64,000 nt of DNA, taken from IMG/VR virus record IMGVR_UViG_3300045988_122521; one strand, written 5' to 3'. Numbering within the stretch: position 1 is the first letter of the stretch; every line of letters begins with the position of its first letter. The stretch comes from a virus. This document shows positions 5,283 through 60,574 of this stretch, piece after piece. The notes under the pieces are model-generated. The model was given only the letters and a program-made list of their open reading frames with translations, had not been told where the DNA came from and did no database searches. The position numbers and the translations under genes were made by a program.

Positions 5283-5358
5283 TGGCGGAAACGGCAGGAC
5301 TCGAACCTGCGGCCCTCTGATTAACAATCAGATGCTCCTCCAACTGAGCTACGCTTCC
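5283..5358 (-). tRNA. tRNA-Asn: tRNA-Asn (anticodon GTT), CCA encoded
   Basis: Hand fold: acceptor GGAAGCG/CGTTTCC, D arm GCTC-AGTTGGAG-GAGC, anticodon arm TCTGA-TTGTTAA-TCAGA, T arm GCAGG-TTCGAGT-CCTGC. 76 nt. Confidence 0.85.
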
Positions 5359-5531: not shown

Positions 5532-5606
5532 TGGCACAGACTCAGGGATTCGAACCCCATCCTGCGGTTTTGGAGACCGCCGTTCTCCCGATCAAACTCA
5601 GTCCGC
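5532..5606 (-). tRNA. tRNA-Trp: tRNA-Trp (anticodon CCA), CCA encoded
   Basis: Hand fold: anticodon arm GCGGT-CTCCAAA-ACCGC, T loop TTCGAAT. The acceptor has two G-U pairs. 75 nt. Confidence 0.7.
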
Positions 5607-54381: not shown

Positions 54382-55176
54382 ATGAATGACCTATTGACCA
54401 TCAGCAACGGCCAGCCCACCGCCAGCAGCCGCGACATTGCGGGGCACTTCGGCAAGGGGCACAACCACGTCTTGCGCGACATTGACGCGCTGAAAGGAGA
54501 TGTGTCCAATTTTGGACAGATGTTCTTCGACACAGAAATCCCCGACAGCTACGGCAGGCCACAGCGAGCCTACCTTATGAACCGCGACGGCTTCACGCTC
54601 CTTGCCATGGGTTTCACTGGCAAGGAGGCGTTGGCGTGGAAGATGAAGTACATCAACGCCTTTAATGCCATGGAGCAGGAATTGCGCTCCCAGCAGCAGG
54701 GCTTGACCGAAGCGGATTTCTCCGCCCTGTCCTACGAGGCCCGCGCCATCATCAAGATGGAGCTTCAGCAGAAACAGCAGGCGAAACAGATCGCCGAACT
54801 GACCACCCAGCAGCAGGAGACGCGCACGATGGTGAACCAGACACTTTCTGCCATTACCCGCCCCTCTACTTCTGACGCAGAGGATTGGAAAGAGGACATC
54901 AACCACACCATCCGTCAGATGTGCGAGGAATACGGTCTCAACTACCACACCACCATCGGCGAGATGTACGCCGAATTGGAAAAGCTGGGCAGTGTCAACC
55001 TCAGCGTCCGGCAGAAAAATCTGCAAGCGCGTATGCGCCGCGGCGGTGCCACCGTGGCCGAGTGCCGCCGTATAAGCAAACTCCACGTCATCTCACAGGA
55101 AAAGAAACTGCGCTGGTTCTACGAAGGTATCGTCCGAGCCTACCGCGCCCAGCTTGCCGCCTCCCGTATGCACTGA
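54382..55176 (+). CDS. Rha-family phage regulatory protein
   Basis: The N-terminal TASSRDIAGHFGKGHNHVLRDIDAL matches the Phage_pRha pattern. Confidence 0.75.
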   Translation: MNDLLTISNGQPTASSRDIAGHFGKGHNHVLRDIDALKGDVSNFGQMFFDTEIPDSYGRPQRAYLMNRDGFTLLAMGFTGKEALAWKMKYINAFNAMEQELRSQQQGLTEADFSALSYEARAIIKMELQQKQQAKQIAELTTQQQETRTMVNQTLSAITRPSTSDAEDWKEDINHTIRQMCEEYGLNYHTTIGEMYAELEKLGSVNLSVRQKNLQARMRRGGATVAECRRISKLHVISQEKKLRWFYEGIVRAYRAQLAASRMH

Positions 55177-55534: not shown

Positions 55535-55699
55535 ATGATTCCAGCAACCATCCAGATCGGTGATCCCGTCACCCAGTACATCGAAGCCACCAACCGCAAG
55601 GCCACCGGCAAGGTGATCTACATTCATCCTCTGCGCCGCTACTACATGGCGGAATTTTCCTTCCGTTTCGGCAAGTTCCGCGAGTGCTTTATGCTCTGA
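55535..55699 (+). CDS. Small hypothetical protein
   Basis: 54 aa, MIPATIQIGDPVTQYIEATNRKATGKVIYIHPLRRYYMAEFSF... Found by hand translation. Confidence 0.35.
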   Translation: MIPATIQIGDPVTQYIEATNRKATGKVIYIHPLRRYYMAEFSFRFGKFRECFML

Positions 55700-55704
55700 A
55701 AAAT

Positions 55705-55750
55705 TTTTCAAAAAAATCCCCCGAAAGGTGTTTACACGGTATGGTATCAT
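55705..55750 (+). promoter_or_regulatory. Composite promoter-like motif, copy 3 (heads the RNA island)
   Basis: TTTTTCAAAAAAATCCCCCGAAAGGTGTTTACACGGTATGGTATCAT. Confidence 0.45.
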
Positions 55751-55889
55751 CCTTTTGCCAAAGGGAGACAGGCTCTTTGACTCTCCTTCGAGTGTAAGAT
55801 AAGCTCCGACCCGTAAGCAGGAGCTGCGCCGGTCAACGTGGCGGTAGCCGCGCCCAGCGTCCCCAGTGCGATTCTGGCAGGGGCCATCC

Positions 55890-55962
55890 GCAGATGTAGC
55901 TCAGTCGGTAGAGCACCGCGCCAGGAGGTATGTCGTTGGTTCGAGTCCAACCGTCTGCACCA
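55890..55962 (+). ncRNA. tRNA-like element 1 (canonical acceptor, D and T arms, CCA; aberrant 15-nt core)
   Basis: GCAGATG-TA-GCTC-AGTCGGTA-GAGC-AC[CGCGCCAGGAGGTAT]GTC-GTTGG-TTCGAGT-CCAAC-CGTCTGC-A-CCA. No 5-bp/7-nt anticodon arm is possible. Confidence 0.5.
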
Positions 55963-56123
55963 ATTCTACGTGGACACCGCGCAAGCGGGATAGCCGTATG
56001 GGCGATGCGAAGTCCTGAAGTAAGCCCCTCAAGCCTCGATGTTGTAATTGCGCCTGTGATCTGCTGGCAAAAGCGAGGCACGGAAAAGATCTGGCGGCTC
56101 GGAAAGACGAGCACCCCCCTCAT

Positions 56124-56205
56124 GCAGACGTAGCTCAGTCGGTAGAGCACGCAGCGTTCCCGGCGCTGATTCCCGTCGTTGGTTCAAGTCCAACCGTCTG
56201 CACCA
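56124..56205 (+). ncRNA. tRNA-like element 2 (same scaffold as element 1; 24-nt core)
   Basis: The core GCAGCGTTCCCGGCGCTGATTCCC contains stem CAGCG/CGCTG with loop TTCCCGG (CCC in the anticodon position). It is out of canonical register: 2 extra nt on the 5' side and a 9-nt 3' segment. Confidence 0.5.
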
Positions 56206-56530
56206 TAGGCGTGACCTCTTGCCTCGCAGCCGCACGGAGCGTAAGCCTGCGAAAGTGGTCTTTCCTGTGCGCTGTACGAAAGCGGCAGGACGAAGAAATT
56301 TATGTATTGGCTGGCACCGGCTTTGTAAAGATGAACGGATGCGACCGACGTACCGGCGCAGGGCTGAAAAGTTCCGTGGTTGGTTCGGGTGCCGGCGTGT
56401 GCGGCGAAAATCCGAGGCGAAACCTGTAGATGTGGAAGCGGCGTGGTGGCGGCCGTCTTTGGACAAGGCCGCCGTGTAGGTCAGTAGCCATCCGCACCGG
56501 CACCCCGCCAACTGTGTCCCCGCAAAATAC
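56206..56530 (+). ncRNA. Candidate structured RNA spacer (GNRA-rich)
   Basis: No credible ORF. Many short helices capped by GAAA/GTAA loops (56251, 56278, 56406, 56419). Perfect hairpin GGCGGCC..GGCCGCC. Confidence 0.3.
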
Positions 56531-56607
56531 GCAGCGTTAGTGTTTAACGGTCAGCACATCGGTCTTCCAAACCGAGAGTGGCGGTTCGAATCCGCTACGC
56601 TGCTCCA
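56531..56607 (+). tRNA. tRNA-Gly: tRNA-Gly (anticodon TCC), CCA encoded
   Basis: Acceptor GCAGCGT/ACGCTGC, anticodon arm TCGGT-CTTCCAA-ACCGA, T arm GGCGG-TTCGAAT-CCGCT, discriminator T. Confidence 0.85.
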
Positions 56608-56778
56608 TGCCCGCCTGGTGGGCGACTTCCCCCATCAGGAATGAAACCTCCGCATCTGGCAGCGGTGTCGCCGGGTGGAATCAGCCGGTAGCAAGATTCG
56701 GGCGTGACAGCGAACGAAGGAACGCCCCATCGGCAGCCGCACCGGAGAGCTATGCGGCAAATCTAAAGAAAGGGACGG

Positions 56779-56787
56779 TGCTATAAT
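56779..56787 (+). promoter_or_regulatory. Extended -10 promoter (TGcTATAAT)
   Basis: TG at 56779-56780 and TATAAT at 56782-56787. No good -35. Confidence 0.4.
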
Positions 56788-56792
56788 CGTGT

Positions 56793-57028
56793 TTTTTATC
56801 AATTACCTGTTCTGGGTATCCGGCGCGGTGCCGTTCCTTGCGATCCCCGCCTGCGCCCCCGCCGCAGGCGCCCGCGAAATCCCTGTGCGTGTGCGCCGAC
56901 GCACGAAGATCAGGCGGACGGGCAGATGGTTCACAGCCGGATTCACTTAGTGTCCACACTCAGCGGGGTATACAAAGTCGAAACGAAAAACGGAGAGGCA
57001 GCGCCCTCTGCGCCCCCTCTCCGTTTTA
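56793..57028 (+). ncRNA. Candidate ~235-nt non-coding transcript ending in a strong terminator
   Basis: Bounded by the extended -10 promoter and the hairpin ACGGAGAGG..CCTCTCCGT+TTTT (56990-57028). Only low-complexity ORFs cross it. Confidence 0.3.
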
Positions 57029-57031
57029 TAC

Positions 57032-57162
57032 GCGGAAGCGCCGTCAGGGGCAAACGACATTTTTTCTACCGCATACAAATCGCACACATGACCTCCCTCA
57101 TCCTTTCTGTTCGTTCGTTGGTGTTGTCGTTTCTGCGGGTTCGAATCCCGCCTTCCGCTCCA
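57032..57162 (+). ncRNA. tRNA-like element 3: tRNA-Gly-type acceptor/T arm enclosing a ~90-nt insert
   Basis: 5' GCGGAAG pairs with 3' CTTCCGC-T-CCA. T arm GCGGG-TTCGAAT-CCCGC. An 8-bp helix AAACGACA/TGTCGTTT closes the insert. Confidence 0.45.
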
Positions 57163-57305
57163 CGGTCCATCATGGACCTCCTTGAAAAGCTGTGGCCGTA
57201 AGAAACAGCTCTGGGTGTTGTTCCCCCAGCTCCTGCTGGAATGCAGGCAGGCCATTTCACCCCCATCTGGGCGGCGAGGTTTGGACCGACCCGCCGCCCA
57301 CCTCT

Positions 57306-57381
57306 GGGATGTTAGCTCAGCAGGCAGAGCAGACGGCTCATAACCGTCCGGTCACGGGTTCGATCCCCCTACATCCCACCA
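57306..57381 (+). tRNA. tRNA-Met: tRNA-Met or tRNA-Ile2 (anticodon CAT), CCA encoded
   Basis: Acceptor GGGATGT/ACATCCC, anticodon arm GACGG-CTCATAA-CCGTC. One mismatch in the T stem. Confidence 0.8.
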
Positions 57382-57446
57382 GCCGCAAGGCGAAAAAACA
57401 AAGTCAGCGAAATCCCCATTTTTTTACAGAAAGGAGGACCTATATC

Positions 57447-57719
57447 ATGACCAAGAGCGAATTCATCGCCGCTGTGGCGGCGGGCGCCAACGTTTCCAAG
57501 GCAGAAGCCGACCGCGTGATCGCCGCCGCCGCCAACACCCTCACCGGTGCCATGTGCAGCGGCGACAACGTGAGTATCCCCGGCTTCGGCATCTTCACCA
57601 GCAGGATGCGCGACGCGCACCCCGGCAAAAATCCCGCTACCGGCGAGACCATCACCATCCCCGCTAAGCGCGTGGCGGTGTTCAAGCCCGCTAAGCAGCT
57701 GAAAGACGCTCTGAACTAA
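57447..57719 (+). CDS. hup: HU-family DNA-binding protein
   Basis: 90 aa, MTKSEFIAAVA...GFGIFTSRMRDAHPGKNPATGETITIPAKRVAVFKPAKQLKDAL. AAAGGAGG RBS. Confidence 0.9.
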   Translation: MTKSEFIAAVAAGANVSKAEADRVIAAAANTLTGAMCSGDNVSIPGFGIFTSRMRDAHPGKNPATGETITIPAKRVAVFKPAKQLKDALN

Positions 57720-57926: not shown

Positions 57927-59000
57927 ATGATCTACTTCGACAACGCCGCCACCACACCGCCCGTTCCCGGCGCATTTGGTGCCGCCACACAGTGCGCCAT
58001 CTTCGGCAACCCTTCCAGCGCCCACGCCGTTGGGCGCGAGGCTAAGGCCGAACTGGAATCTTGCCGTGCCATCATCGCCGACAAACTGAACTGCGAACCG
58101 GACGAGGTGTATTTCACCTCCGGTGCCACCGAAGCTTGCAACTGGATGGTCAGATGCCTCCGGCTGGAGACCGACGCCATCAACTACAACGACACCGTTC
58201 ACCACGCCGTTAGCGAGGCTGCCCGGTCATACCTCGTGCCCATCGCTACCCACGGCAAGCCCTCCGCCATCCTATCCCTCGTCAACAACGAAACCGGCCA
58301 GATAAGCAATGTGGACGCTTTCTGCCGCAAGAATCGCCCCCACCGCATCGCCCTTGACGCCACCGCCGCCGTAGGACACATCCCCGTGGACTTCAAGGCG
58401 CTGGGTGCGGACTACATGGCGTTCGGAGGCCACAAGTTCGGATCCCTCAAGGGCATCGGTGCACTCATCGTCCGCCGCGGCTGTCCCATCGCCCCCATGA
58501 TCTTCGGCGGCGCACAGGAGCGCGGTATGCGCGGCGGCACGGTCTCCGTCCCCCTTGTCAGCTCTATGGCCGCCGCCCTCACCTGGCGCTCCCTCCACAT
58601 GGCAGAAAACGAGAAAGCTATCCGCGCCGTCGCTCAGGAGCTTATCATTTCCCTTGGTTGCCACCATGTGGATTTCGACATCAATCTGCCCGGCGGCAAA
58701 AGCAGCAAGGATTGCGCTCCCCACATCCTCTCCATCCGCTTCCCCGGCGTCTACGGCGCGTCCCTCGCCGCCGCCCTCAGCGTAAACGGCATCATGGTGT
58801 CTACCGGCTCCGCCTGTTCCTCCGGCGACAACGCCGCCTCCGCCAACCTCATGGCCAGCGGCCTTACCGAGCAGGAGGCACTGGAGACCATCCGCTTCTC
58901 CTTCGACTGGTACAACACAACCGCCGAGGCCGCCGAAGCCGCCCGCACCATCTCCAGGCTTCTCCCTTCGCTCCGCCGCGGCAAAAGCGGCAAAAATTGA
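57927..59000 (+). CDS. Cysteine desulfurase (NifS/IscS-like, class V aminotransferase), short form
   Basis: 357 aa. PLP lysine context GGHKFGSLKG. Active-site loop STGSACSSG. Confidence 0.8.
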   Translation: MIYFDNAATTPPVPGAFGAATQCAIFGNPSSAHAVGREAKAELESCRAIIADKLNCEPDEVYFTSGATEACNWMVRCLRLETDAINYNDTVHHAVSEAARSYLVPIATHGKPSAILSLVNNETGQISNVDAFCRKNRPHRIALDATAAVGHIPVDFKALGADYMAFGGHKFGSLKGIGALIVRRGCPIAPMIFGGAQERGMRGGTVSVPLVSSMAAALTWRSLHMAENEKAIRAVAQELIISLGCHHVDFDINLPGGKSSKDCAPHILSIRFPGVYGASLAAALSVNGIMVSTGSACSSGDNAASANLMASGLTEQEALETIRFSFDWYNTTAEAAEAARTISRLLPSLRRGKSGKN

Positions 59001-59542: not shown

Positions 59543-60574
59543 ATGCCCCGCACATCTGCCGCCGAGCGCAGACTCTGCGCCGCCACCGACGCATACCTCA
59601 AAAACTGCGCCGCCACCGACTTTTCCCCCCGCACCCTCAAAAACTACACCTACACGCTGGAGGACTTCATGAATTTCTTCATCGAGTCCAAGGAGAATTA
59701 CGCCGACCCCAACTACGCTACCATCCTTCTGTGGCGAAACTCCCTCATTGAGCGGCAGTGCTCTCCTTCCACCGTCCGGCAGTATCTCATCCGCCTCCAC
59801 GCCTTTTTCGAGTTCGCCTGCGACCCTCAATGCGGCGGCTGGTATCAGACGAACCCTGTCTCCAAGCGCCTGCTGCCCAACACGCGGCGGGAGGAACTGC
59901 GTCCCTATGACCCGCTCCTCACCGACCAACAGGTCATGAAGCTATGGCGAAATGACCGTCCTCCGCGTGCCAAGGCCGCCACTTACCCCCGCAACTACGC
60001 CATCGTCATCCTTCTCCTCACCACGGAACTGCGCAACGCGGAGCTGCTGCACCTCACCCCCGCCGACCTCTACTGGGACGATGGCGAGATTTTCGTAGAA
60101 TACGGCAAGGGCAACAAGTTCCGCCGTGTGGACTTCCCCGACATTGCCCAGTCTGCCGTCCGCATCTACCTTGCCAGCGGCATCCGCCCCCGCGGCCTGC
60201 CGGATACCGCGCCCCTGTTCGGCACTACCAGCGAAAAGGGCGTTTTCGGTGCCAGAAATCGGGACTGTGGATGGTCCGCCGGTTCTCCCACATGGCTTTC
60301 CGCGCTGGTGGAGCGCCACGTCAAGGCCGTCACCGGCGTCCCCAATATCCGCACCCACGACCTGCGCCACGTCGGCGCACGTCTCGACCTCAATGGCGGT
60401 ATGGCGCAGGAGGAACTGCAGGCAAAACTGGGTCACGCCTCCCCCGCCATCACCCAGGTCTATTCCGGAAAGCTCATGGGCAAAGCGGGTAAGCGCTCCG
60501 CCATTCTGGTACTGGAAGCCCGAGAACGGCAGGCGGAGATCAACGAAGGCCTCTTATCCGCCTCTTCACAATAA
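59543..60574 (+). CDS. Tyrosine recombinase, XerC/D-like
   Basis: 343 aa. Catalytic contexts ELRNAEL (R), THDLRH (HxxR), LGHAS (H), QVYSG (Y). Confidence 0.85.
   Translation: MPRTSAAERRLCAATDAYLKNCAATDFSPRTLKNYTYTLEDFMNFFIESKENYADPNYATILLWRNSLIERQCSPSTVRQYLIRLHAFFEFACDPQCGGWYQTNPVSKRLLPNTRREELRPYDPLLTDQQVMKLWRNDRPPRAKAATYPRNYAIVILLLTTELRNAELLHLTPADLYWDDGEIFVEYGKGNKFRRVDFPDIAQSAVRIYLASGIRPRGLPDTAPLFGTTSEKGVFGARNRDCGWSAGSPTWLSALVERHVKAVTGVPNIRTHDLRHVGARLDLNGGMAQEELQAKLGHASPAITQVYSGKLMGKAGKRSAILVLEARERQAEINEGLLSASSQ

Follow-up and report, generated by a model that had tools for sequence, protein, structure and literature searches.

An RNA island in a temperate gut phage

A stretch of viral DNA of 64,000 nucleotides (nt; IMG/VR record IMGVR_UViG_3300045988_122521), referred to here at its full length as the window, carries an island of transfer RNAs (tRNAs), tRNA-like elements and spacers. 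One of these spacers, S2, is a structured RNA of ~310 nt. It belongs to a widespread RNA family, and most of its copies begin immediately behind the CCA end of a tRNA or tRNA-like element. The genes identified in the window (portal, DnaB-like helicase, RecT, DNA methyltransferases and PAPS reductase) mark it as a phage or prophage genome, and the host phage is a temperate phage of Oscillospiraceae-type gut bacteria. The island and its principal units are as follows.

55751-57381, + strand: RNA island, in which tRNAs and tRNA-shaped elements alternate with conserved spacers
55890-55962, + strand: e1, a 73-nt tRNA-like element (Rfam tRNA 50.7 bits at 55890-55959; called by ARAGORN only at -ps90)
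56124-56205, + strand: e2, an 82-nt tRNA-like element with the e1-type scaffold (ARAGORN tRNA-Gly(CCC); Rfam tRNA 52.3 bits; fold z = -3.1)
56206-~56518, + strand: S2, directly after the CCA of e2 (from covariation and homologues)
56531-56607, + strand: canonical tRNA-Gly(UCC), 12 nt after the S2 tail (ARAGORN; Rfam 43.5 bits; fold z = -3.3)
57032-57162, + strand: e4, a 131-nt tRNA-like element found by folding (called by ARAGORN only with -i -ps85, with a 58-nt 'intron')
57306-57381, + strand: canonical tRNA-Met(CAU), the last RNA gene of the island (ARAGORN; Rfam 58.6 bits)

No credible gene lies between position 55699 (the stop codon of a 54-amino-acid open reading frame, ORF) and position 57447 (the hup start codon), as the six longest ORFs gave no significant match to Pfam or PHROG. 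The best ORF match across the island, a single PHROG hit at E = 0.055, was not significant. This agrees with an earlier interpretation made without database searches (the sequence-only reading), which had described ~1.7 kb lacking a credible ORF and, within it, two canonical tRNAs, three aberrant tRNA-like modules and GC-rich spacers of 140-330 nt full of GNRA-capped helices. Both tRNAs were likewise borne out by ARAGORN and Rfam. The folds of e1, e2 and e4 support the three tRNA-like modules, although e2 passes as a tRNA for both detectors, and the end of the third module has been corrected to 57162. The spacers between tRNA or tRNA-like units measure 161, 325, 424 and 143 nt, so that one exceeds the proposed range. 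GNRA-capped hairpins are modestly enriched over dinucleotide shuffles (8 in the island against 2.9 +/- 1.7), a count reached by 4 of 300 shuffles. Two of the checks suggested with that reading were run: relaxed ARAGORN recovered e1 (at -ps90) and e4 (with introns allowed), and the Rfam search returned only tRNA and noise at E <= 10.

S2 is a widespread, covarying RNA

Relatives of the island permitted a detailed description of S2 (loci compared with the window are numbered L001, L002 and so on). The following parts can be distinguished in the window.

56225-56251, + strand: 5' hairpin with a GUAA-containing loop
56263-56290, + strand: hairpin
56292-56308, + strand: A/U-rich linker
56309-56322, + strand: hairpin
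56335-56377, + strand: invariant three-way junction of 43 nt (ACGGAUGCG...GCGCAGGGCUGAAAAGUUCCGU) with a GAAA-capped mini-hairpin
56378-56404 paired with 56492-56512, + strand: long-range helix
56414-56419 and 56440-56446, + strand: conserved GAGGCG and GGCGUGG
56448-56473, + strand: hairpin
56474-56480, + strand: GUGUAGG
56513-56516, + strand: UGUG of the 3' tail

An exact 20-mer of the S2 core (GCGCAGGGCTGAAAAGTTCC, window position 56356) occurs in at least 120 IMG/VR contigs. Among the matches listed there are 96 distinct copies of S2, which form 30 clusters at 88% identity. Common to all copies are the invariant core ACGGAUGCGA...GCGCAGGGCUGAAAAGUUCCGUG, a small hairpin GCUGG..CCGGC, the A/U-rich linker, the single-stranded motifs GAGGCG, GGnGUGG and GUGUAG, and the 3' UGUG. 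Between these anchors the helices vary in sequence while their pairing is kept. The helices occur in at least nine sequence versions, each of which pairs only with its own partner; for the long-range helix, pairing with its own partner is worth -27.5 kcal/mol versus -11.5 kcal/mol with the partners of other subtypes.

Covariation was tested on the 3' domain, which was aligned separately for 22 diverse members because a full-length MAFFT alignment misaligned it. In this alignment of 22 sequences, RNAalifold predicted 25 pairs, 22 of which show compensatory changes. Paired cells amounted to 89.8%, compared with 65.2% after column shuffling (none of 500 shuffles reached the observed value) and 32-47% when the partners were slid against each other. 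The covariation score behaved in the same way, at 0.705 versus 0.27 for shuffled and 0.10-0.16 for slid partners. The 5' hairpin likewise covaries. A comparison of homologous loci for covariation had been recommended alongside the sequence-only reading, and its outcome favours a structured RNA.

S2 is therefore a member of a widespread RNA family that is absent from Rfam. Apart from tRNA, no Rfam 15 family gave a meaningful score at E <= 10 in either the 1.9-kb region or the 326-nt S2 sequence searched with the laxest filters, and at the gathering score only tRNAs were found in two relatives. A full-text literature search found no published description of the family, though it may have been described elsewhere. 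When GTDB was scanned with a gapped 19-base pattern, at one genome per species, six of the 105 matches were true S2 copies and the ~100 others were chance matches in GC-rich genomes. The true copies, of Oscillospirales type overall, lie only in assemblies of Oscillospiraceae, Oscillibacter and Lawsonibacter and in L214 and L217, the taxon of the latter two being unchecked. In GenBank, the only phages matching the island are two unannotated human-gut phage scaffolds, one of which is L002.

The gene neighbourhood of S2 did not point to a protein partner, as no family occurs in more than 30 of the 128 loci. The downstream genes are often terS, terL and portal; other copies are followed by HU and an aminotransferase, or by a ParB-like methyltransferase. 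At L002 (3375-3495) and in many loci of the L002 type, a second conserved structured element with nested hairpins (GACUAACGCC...GGUAGCAAAA) lies between S2 and the small-terminase gene.

Several resemblances of S2 to catalytic or ribosomal RNA motifs were considered and set aside. By eye only, GAAAAGUUCCG within 56335-56377 and CCGGCUU(U/A) at 56309-56325 resemble the strands of RNase P helix P4. An assignment of the core segments GAAAAGUUCCG and CCGGCUUA to the RNase P regions CR-I and CR-V was rejected: their order is reversed and the bacterial and archaeal RNase P covariance models gave no match at E <= 10. Look-alikes of group II domain V and of the sarcin-ricin loop were also discarded, the matching bases falling in subtype-variable loops.

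Most S2 copies start directly behind a CCA end

S2 starts directly behind CCA in 87 of the 96 distinct copies. In 79 of these 87, the seven nucleotides before the discriminator pair with a 7-mer located 60-120 nt upstream, thereby forming an acceptor-like stem, and 62 of the 79 also carry a T-loop motif. The upstream element itself is far from constant. At least six kinds of CCA-ending element, genuine tRNAs included, precede S2. ARAGORN recognised a tRNA upstream of S2 in 43 of 100 loci (Gly-UCC, Trp-CCA-like, Met, Ser and others), and in the remaining 57 the aberrant elements received no call. A tRNA also lies within ~150 nt downstream of the S2 3' end in 27 of 100 loci.

Three elements of the compared loci deserve separate mention. 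A conserved 92-nt RNA (GCGGCAUAGG...AUGCCGUACCA) ending in CCA precedes S2 in L004, L006, L018 and others and is missed by tRNA finders; it is cloverleaf-like, with a GUAA-capped arm and a T-arm analogue of 4 bp and 7 nt from which the T-loop sequence is absent. In L008, L037, L055 and L066 the position upstream of S2 is held by a tRNA-like element of 112-115 nt (GGAGAUG...CAUCUCCACCA), also with a CCA end, which combines a canonical T arm with a very long extra arm and is not called by ARAGORN. Finally, an element of 77 nt in L015, L016, L023, L039 and others has an anticodon loop of the Trp(CCA) type, an unusual D region and G as discriminator. Two covarying versions of its acceptor stem occur (GCGGGCA/UGUCCGU and AGGGGCG/CGUCCCU), and the element may be a functional non-canonical tRNA.

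A close relative of the window shows that the tRNA-like element and S2 can be gained or lost as a unit. Rightwards from 56531, L228 and the window share 99.5% identity, and leftwards ~93%. The S1 spacer of L228 joins tRNA-Gly directly, so that exactly e2 and S2 are missing (56124-56530, 407 nt). L002 retains e2 and the ~300 nt that follow in a different gene context. A GCAG microhomology flanks the cassette, since both e2 and tRNA-Gly begin with this sequence. Among the other copies, the 5' and 3' subdomains of S2 and the upstream elements have been reshuffled.

The tRNA-like elements keep their arms and exchange their anticodon region

Folding predicts for e1 a cloverleaf whose acceptor, D and T arms are intact and whose encoded end is ACCA, and in which a proper anticodon arm is missing. 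Its place is taken by a 19-nt core containing CAGGAGGUAUG, a Shine-Dalgarno-like stretch (55918-55928) of opposite sense to the anti-Shine-Dalgarno-like motifs of e4 and S4 described below. The centroid structure has no anticodon arm and the default ARAGORN run makes no call. The Rfam tRNA model cannot align this arm either, finding 12 nt where 15 are expected, and e1 thus lacks the 5-bp anticodon stem and 7-nt loop of a complete tRNA cloverleaf (RF00005). The e1 core recurs in ~15 scaffold variants. By comparison, e2 is closer to a tRNA: its acceptor, D and T arms are intact, it ends in A73-CCA, and it forms an anticodon-like hairpin, CAGCG-UUCCCGG-CGCUG. Its oddities are two additional bases past the D arm and a variable region of 9 nt. 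The identity set by which bacterial glycyl-tRNA synthetase recognises tRNA-Gly comprises U73 and G3:C70, whereas e2 carries A73 and A3:U70 despite its CCC loop.

The e1 and e2 scaffold was recovered as 40 distinct sequences, all of the form GCAGAYG...CRTCTGC-A-CCA. Four T stems, each fully complementary, are found among them (GTTGG/CCAAC, GCAGG/CCTGC, GCTGG/CCAGC and GTGGG/CCCAC), and two D stems (GCTC/GAGC and CCTC/GAGG). In place of the anticodon arm, the 40 sequences carry at least 14 unrelated segments, which are 9-37 nt long. Because the arms are maintained by compensation while the anticodon region is swapped, these scaffolds are selected modules rather than decaying pseudogenes: a decoding tRNA would not lose its anticodon arm, and decay would not compensate stems. 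The e1 core differs between the window and the near-identical L228. In L001, L012, L048 and L055, the e1 position is occupied by a genuine tRNA-Thr(CGU) followed by the same S1.

Of the three tRNA-like elements, e4 is the weakest. It has a 7-bp acceptor stem (GCGGAAG/CTTCCGC), a U73-CCA end, a T arm and a mini D hairpin of 3 bp. An 8-bp helix (57052-57059/57125-57132) closes a C/U-rich loop of ~65 nt containing ACCUCCCUCAUCCUUUCU (57091-57108). No Rfam tRNA match was obtained on the plus strand at E <= 10, and ARAGORN made no default call. The acceptor is of the Firmicute tRNA-Gly type (G1:C72, C2:G71, G3:C70, U73, CCA), and e4 may be recently derived from a tRNA-Gly.

Other spacers, an insert and neighbouring genes

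The remaining segments of the island are listed here.

55751-55889, + strand: leader, with a GUAA-capped hairpin at 55803-55824 and a T-arm-like hairpin, CCAG-UGCGAUU-CUGG, at 55863-55877
55963-56123, + strand: spacer S1, immediately behind the CCA of e1, conserved in ~13 loci
56608-56729, + strand: spacer S3, immediately behind the CCA of tRNA-Gly, conserved in ~30 loci
56730-57031, + strand: inserted segment of ~300 nt, present only in the window and L228 and absent from L001 and L055
57163-57305, + strand: spacer S4, with a hairpin at 57164-57178, GGACCUCCUU at 57174-57183 and a GUAA-loop hairpin at 57189-57209

Conservation of the leader does not extend beyond the closest relatives, L008 and L228. 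Its T-arm-like hairpin reads CCAG-CGCAAUU-CUGG in L001 (2852-2866), and at -ps90 ARAGORN proposes a dubious 'tRNA-Leu' at 55808-55886, so the leader may hold a very degenerate tRNA-like remnant. S1 ends in a hairpin, GCUCG-GAAAGA-CGAGC (56097-56112), and a C-rich leader, ACCCCCCUCAU (56113-56123), before e2; the hairpin covaries with a second copy in L055 (GCCGG-GAAAGA-CCGGC). A hairpin of S3 (56614-56639) covaries as well, with CCUGGUGG/CCAUCAGG in the window versus CCUGAUGG/CCGUCAGG in L001, and the S3-type 5' start (TGCCCGCC...) is also found behind other CCA-ending elements. S4 is conserved in ~13 loci, among them L001, which is without e4, and its hairpin changes from GCUGU...ACAGC to GCUGC...GCAGC in that locus.

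At 56779-56787 the inserted segment contains an extended -10-like sequence, TGCTATAAT; a long hairpin enclosing an A/T-rich loop is also present. No phage-database match was found for 56730-57175. The segment 56730-57031 could be an independent small RNA gene of ~235 nt inserted in the island.

Anti-Shine-Dalgarno-like ACCUCC motifs occur in the e4 loop (57091-57108) and at the start of S4 (57174-57183). The S4 sequence GGACCUCCUU is complementary at 9 of 10 positions to the hup ribosome-binding site AAGGAGGACC (57430-57439). These Shine-Dalgarno-type matches may be due to chance. On the minus strand, a terminator-like site (57009-56994) lies just downstream of mini-ORFs (57066-57266) antisense to e4 and S4. 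These mini-ORFs, which stand behind GGAGG..ATG, are probably not genes since the frame is lost in L055.

The island is bordered by the following protein-coding features.

54382-55176: Rha-type antirepressor
55699: stop codon of the 54-amino-acid ORF
57430-57449: ribosome-binding site and start codon of hup, after tRNA-Met
57447-57719: HU (hup; Pfam PF00216, 1.2e-28), start codon at 57447
57927-59000: class V aminotransferase, cysteine-desulfurase-like (Pfam PF00266, 1.4e-42)
59543-60574: tyrosine integrase

In ~23 related loci, the island is likewise followed by hup and the aminotransferase gene. Thiolation of tRNAs is fed by cysteine desulfurases, which may or may not be relevant here. Two further canonical tRNAs of the window, Asn-GUU and Trp-CCA (5283-5358 and 5532-5606, minus strand), are located ~50 kb away beside structural genes.

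Relation to known tRNA-associated RNAs

The closest known counterparts of S2 are GOLLD and ROOL, large structured RNAs of phages and prophages that occur in or beside tRNA islands (PMC12286853, PMC5737381). GOLLD can hold tRNAs in its linker and has been found downstream of tRNA-Met (PMC12286853, PMC5737381). S2 resembles both in its phage and tRNA-island context and in its ornate, GNRA-rich fold, and it shares the setting of GOLLD by lying in a phage genome between a tRNA-like element and tRNA-Gly. By this context, S2 may be grouped with the large phage RNAs of tRNA islands. The sequence-only reading had gone further in suggesting that the island could belong to the GOLLD and ROOL group or be a relative of it. 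What survives of that suggestion is a structured, covarying phage RNA fused to tRNA or tRNA-like ends; membership found no support in Rfam. In searches of the 64-kb window, of the 1.9-kb region and of S2 alone (326 nt), GOLLD (RF01998), including its conserved 3' domain, reached neither the gathering score nor E <= 10, and ROOL (RF03087), with its six multistem junctions, gave no match at E <= 10. At ~310 nt, S2 is about half the size of ROOL (~581 nt) and shorter still than GOLLD (>800 nt) (PMC5737381, PMC12286853). Its fusion to a CCA end at single-nucleotide precision is a rule not described for either RNA, and its hosts, Oscillospiraceae gut bacteria, also set it apart. Modules come and go between close relatives, which shows that the island is not one rigid RNA. 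That S2 or the whole island is a divergent form of one of these RNAs is thus very improbable, their shared phage-borne context with sometimes embedded tRNAs notwithstanding (PMC12286853, PMC5737381).

Other systems offer parallels to the tRNA-like elements. In plant mitochondria, t-elements are non-canonical cloverleaves in long transcripts that direct cuts by RNase P and RNase Z and so generate the ends of adjacent RNAs (PMC1920247). The e1, e2 and e4 elements share their anatomy, a conserved acceptor and T arm, and their position relative to neighbouring sequences. However, t-elements flank organelle mRNAs, whereas e1, e2 and e4 flank structured non-coding RNAs of a phage and encode CCA, and their cleavage is inferred. 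In murine herpesvirus 68 (MHV68), the TMERs begin with a non-decoding viral tRNA-like element, and a cut by tRNase Z releases the downstream pre-microRNA hairpins (PMC6667617). As in the island, a tRNA-like element stands directly upstream of another non-coding RNA; MALAT1-mascRNA is a comparable case. The MHV68 system differs in being eukaryotic, in that the viral tRNA supplies an RNA polymerase III promoter, and in its payload, a hairpin of ~60 nt versus a multi-helix RNA of 310 nt.

Among bacteriophages, T4 encodes RNAC and RNAD (species 1 and 2) in its tRNA cluster and co-processes them with the tRNAs. They differ from S2 in being much smaller and without sequence relation, and no CCA junction rule is known for them. 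Both are stable small RNAs whose function is still unknown (PMC9697503). Transfer-messenger RNA (tmRNA) and YrlA likewise join a tRNA-like domain to a second functional RNA domain. In those RNAs a single molecule forms or encloses the tRNA-like domain, whereas that of the island is complete, separate and upstream of S2. Neither was detected in the island: for tmRNA or permuted tmRNA, the default ARAGORN run and Rfam gave nothing and four permuted candidates from a relaxed run (-m -ps80) were noise, and for YrlA (RF02553) the only signal was 15.5 bits (gathering score 69; E = 8.7) over the leader and the 5' half of e1.

How the island may work

We favour the interpretation that the island is a co-transcribed array in which tRNA-like processing handles release stable structured RNAs, and consider it probable. 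It develops the alternative offered in the sequence-only reading, tRNA-like modules as RNase P/Z punctuation for the release of spacer RNAs, and resembles the tRNA-punctuation model of mitochondria. The layout would be that of a repeated unit, a tRNA or tRNA-shaped element followed by a structured RNA. In such an array, e1, e2 and e4 would have kept only those parts which the tRNA-processing machinery reads, namely the acceptor, the T arm, the D arm or elbow and the ACCA or UCCA end. RNase P would cut at the 5' ends of the tRNA-shaped handles, and the 3'-end maturation pathway would cut or trim at their CCA ends. In this way, a long primary transcript could yield tRNAs, tRNA-like fragments and spacer RNAs, each with defined ends. 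S2 would be the main payload, travelling between phages with its upstream handle as a cassette of ~400 nt and presumably acting in trans as a stable RNA. A compact tertiary structure, able to bind a partner or S2 itself, is suggested by the GNRA loops and the invariant junction. Among the readings considered, this one fits the anatomy best: it accounts for a junction precisely at CCA, for the exchange of genuine tRNAs and aberrant elements in one position, for selection confined to the acceptor, T and D arms, and for the frequent presence of a tRNA directly downstream.

A number of observations weigh against it. In Firmicutes, an encoded CCA is reported to inhibit RNase Z; a cut between CCA and S2 would therefore need another endonuclease together with trimming, which the tight fold of S2 does not obviously favour. 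A consensus scan found no promoter upstream of the island, including 55705-55750, where the sequence-only reading had placed a promoter-like motif. Within the island, a hairpin and T-run at 56992-57031, in the inserted segment, are terminator-like on both strands, more strongly so on the minus strand. Nine of the 96 S2 copies are not preceded by a clean CCA, and an acceptor-like stem is missing from a few of the upstream elements. The homologues of e4 are limited to a near-identical one in L228 and one of 80% identity in L055; in the latter, the helix is preserved through a change of C-G to U.G, and the end is ACAA instead of UCCA. Lastly, the e1 core and the e2 core are each kept across several phages, so they may have a role of their own beyond that of a passive handle.

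This last point leads to the foremost alternative, which we regard as unlikely: the tRNA-like elements may themselves be the functional products, serving as mimics or decoys for host anticodon nucleases and related defences, or as substrates for synthetases or transferases that read the acceptor. Hypervariable anticodon regions would then reflect an arms race, and S2 would merely share the transcript. Such a role would accord with an acceptor that is sequence-invariant in all 40 variants beside an anticodon region in at least 14 versions, with the different e1 cores of the window and L228, and with the conserved cores of e1 and e2 and the canonical-looking 7-nt loop (UUCCCGG) of e2. The cores could not, however, be linked to any known nuclease or synthetase, e2 is without the glycine identity set, and the start of S2 at CCA in 87 of 96 copies would be left unexplained, as would the substitution of the elements by tRNAs. 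The consistent orientation of S2 raises another prospect, which we rate as rather doubtful, that it acts in cis as the leader of a downstream operon, for instance through processive antitermination, riboswitch-like sensing or stabilisation of the mRNA. The orientation of S2 always matches that of its flanking genes; in many phages the genes for small terminase, large terminase and portal come immediately after it, and in the lineage of the window hup lies downstream. Yet the downstream genes vary by lineage (terS, HU with aminotransferase, or the ParB-like methyltransferase), one or more tRNAs and further spacers often intervene, and a cis-acting leader would give the strict fusion to CCA no role. 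With 310 nt and an invariant junction, S2 is also far larger than known antiterminator RNAs.

The mobility of the unit invites the thought that it is a selfish cassette comparable to a short interspersed element (SINE) or a miniature inverted-repeat transposable element (MITE), spreading by recombination at tRNA-like sequences, its structure being conserved for its own propagation or stability and not in the service of the phage. Its presence or absence in phages that are ~99.5% identical to the right, the flanking GCAG microhomology, the unrelated gene contexts of L002 and the window and the reshuffled domains and handles all suit this idea. The neighbourhood survey, on the other hand, linked no transposase, reverse transcriptase or homing endonuclease to S2, and the invariant 43-nt core and rich covariation argue for strong selection on RNA function. 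We think it decidedly unlikely as a full account; it is moreover compatible with the processing array and does not compete with it. Far less probable than any of these is an ordinary phage tRNA array with decaying pseudogenes, whose spacers are conserved through close kinship, an outcome that the sequence-only reading had named as one that would refute it. Genuine tRNAs are indeed present, e4 has lost its CCA in L055, and the scaffold resembles the D and acceptor arms of tRNA-Thr, a real copy of which occupies the e1 position in relatives. Decay would nevertheless strike everywhere, while here stems are compensated and only the anticodon region turns over. The S2 helix versions pair only with their own partners where slid and shuffled controls fail, and S2 recurs in unrelated genomic contexts. 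The compensatory changes in the tRNA-like stems and spacer helices exclude that outcome.

A more novel reading assigns an active part to S2. It is conceivable, if improbable, that S2 is a new class of tRNA-handling RNA whose core recognises or acts on the tRNA-shaped element to which it is fused. S2 might then self-cleave precisely between CCA and the following nucleotide, as a cis-acting ribozyme that matures 3' ends. Alternatively, it might dock the tRNA elbow or CCA and multimerise while carrying tRNA-like cargo, in the manner of the cages with linked tRNAs proposed for GOLLD.

Outlook

Few large ornate RNAs of unknown function are known from bacteria and phages. GOLLD and ROOL are two of these, and both are linked to the tRNA islands of phages for reasons yet to be explained. 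S2 is a third, unrelated RNA family with this link, and one that is common in phages of human-gut Oscillospiraceae. It also sharpens the link to a rule: the RNA begins one nucleotide past CCA, and the upstream tRNA may shrink to its acceptor, T and D arms. Many 'tRNA-like' sequences of phages are thus selected, non-decoding modules which tRNA finders either miss or mislabel as tRNA-Gly(CCC), Trp, Cys or Met, and this matters for the annotation of phage tRNA repertoires. More speculatively, the ~400-nt cassette of handle and RNA might serve as a natural design for the expression of defined RNAs in Firmicutes. Above all, the CCA rule makes it possible to ask by experiment why phages combine ornate RNAs with tRNAs, be it for processing, for stabilisation or as cargo.

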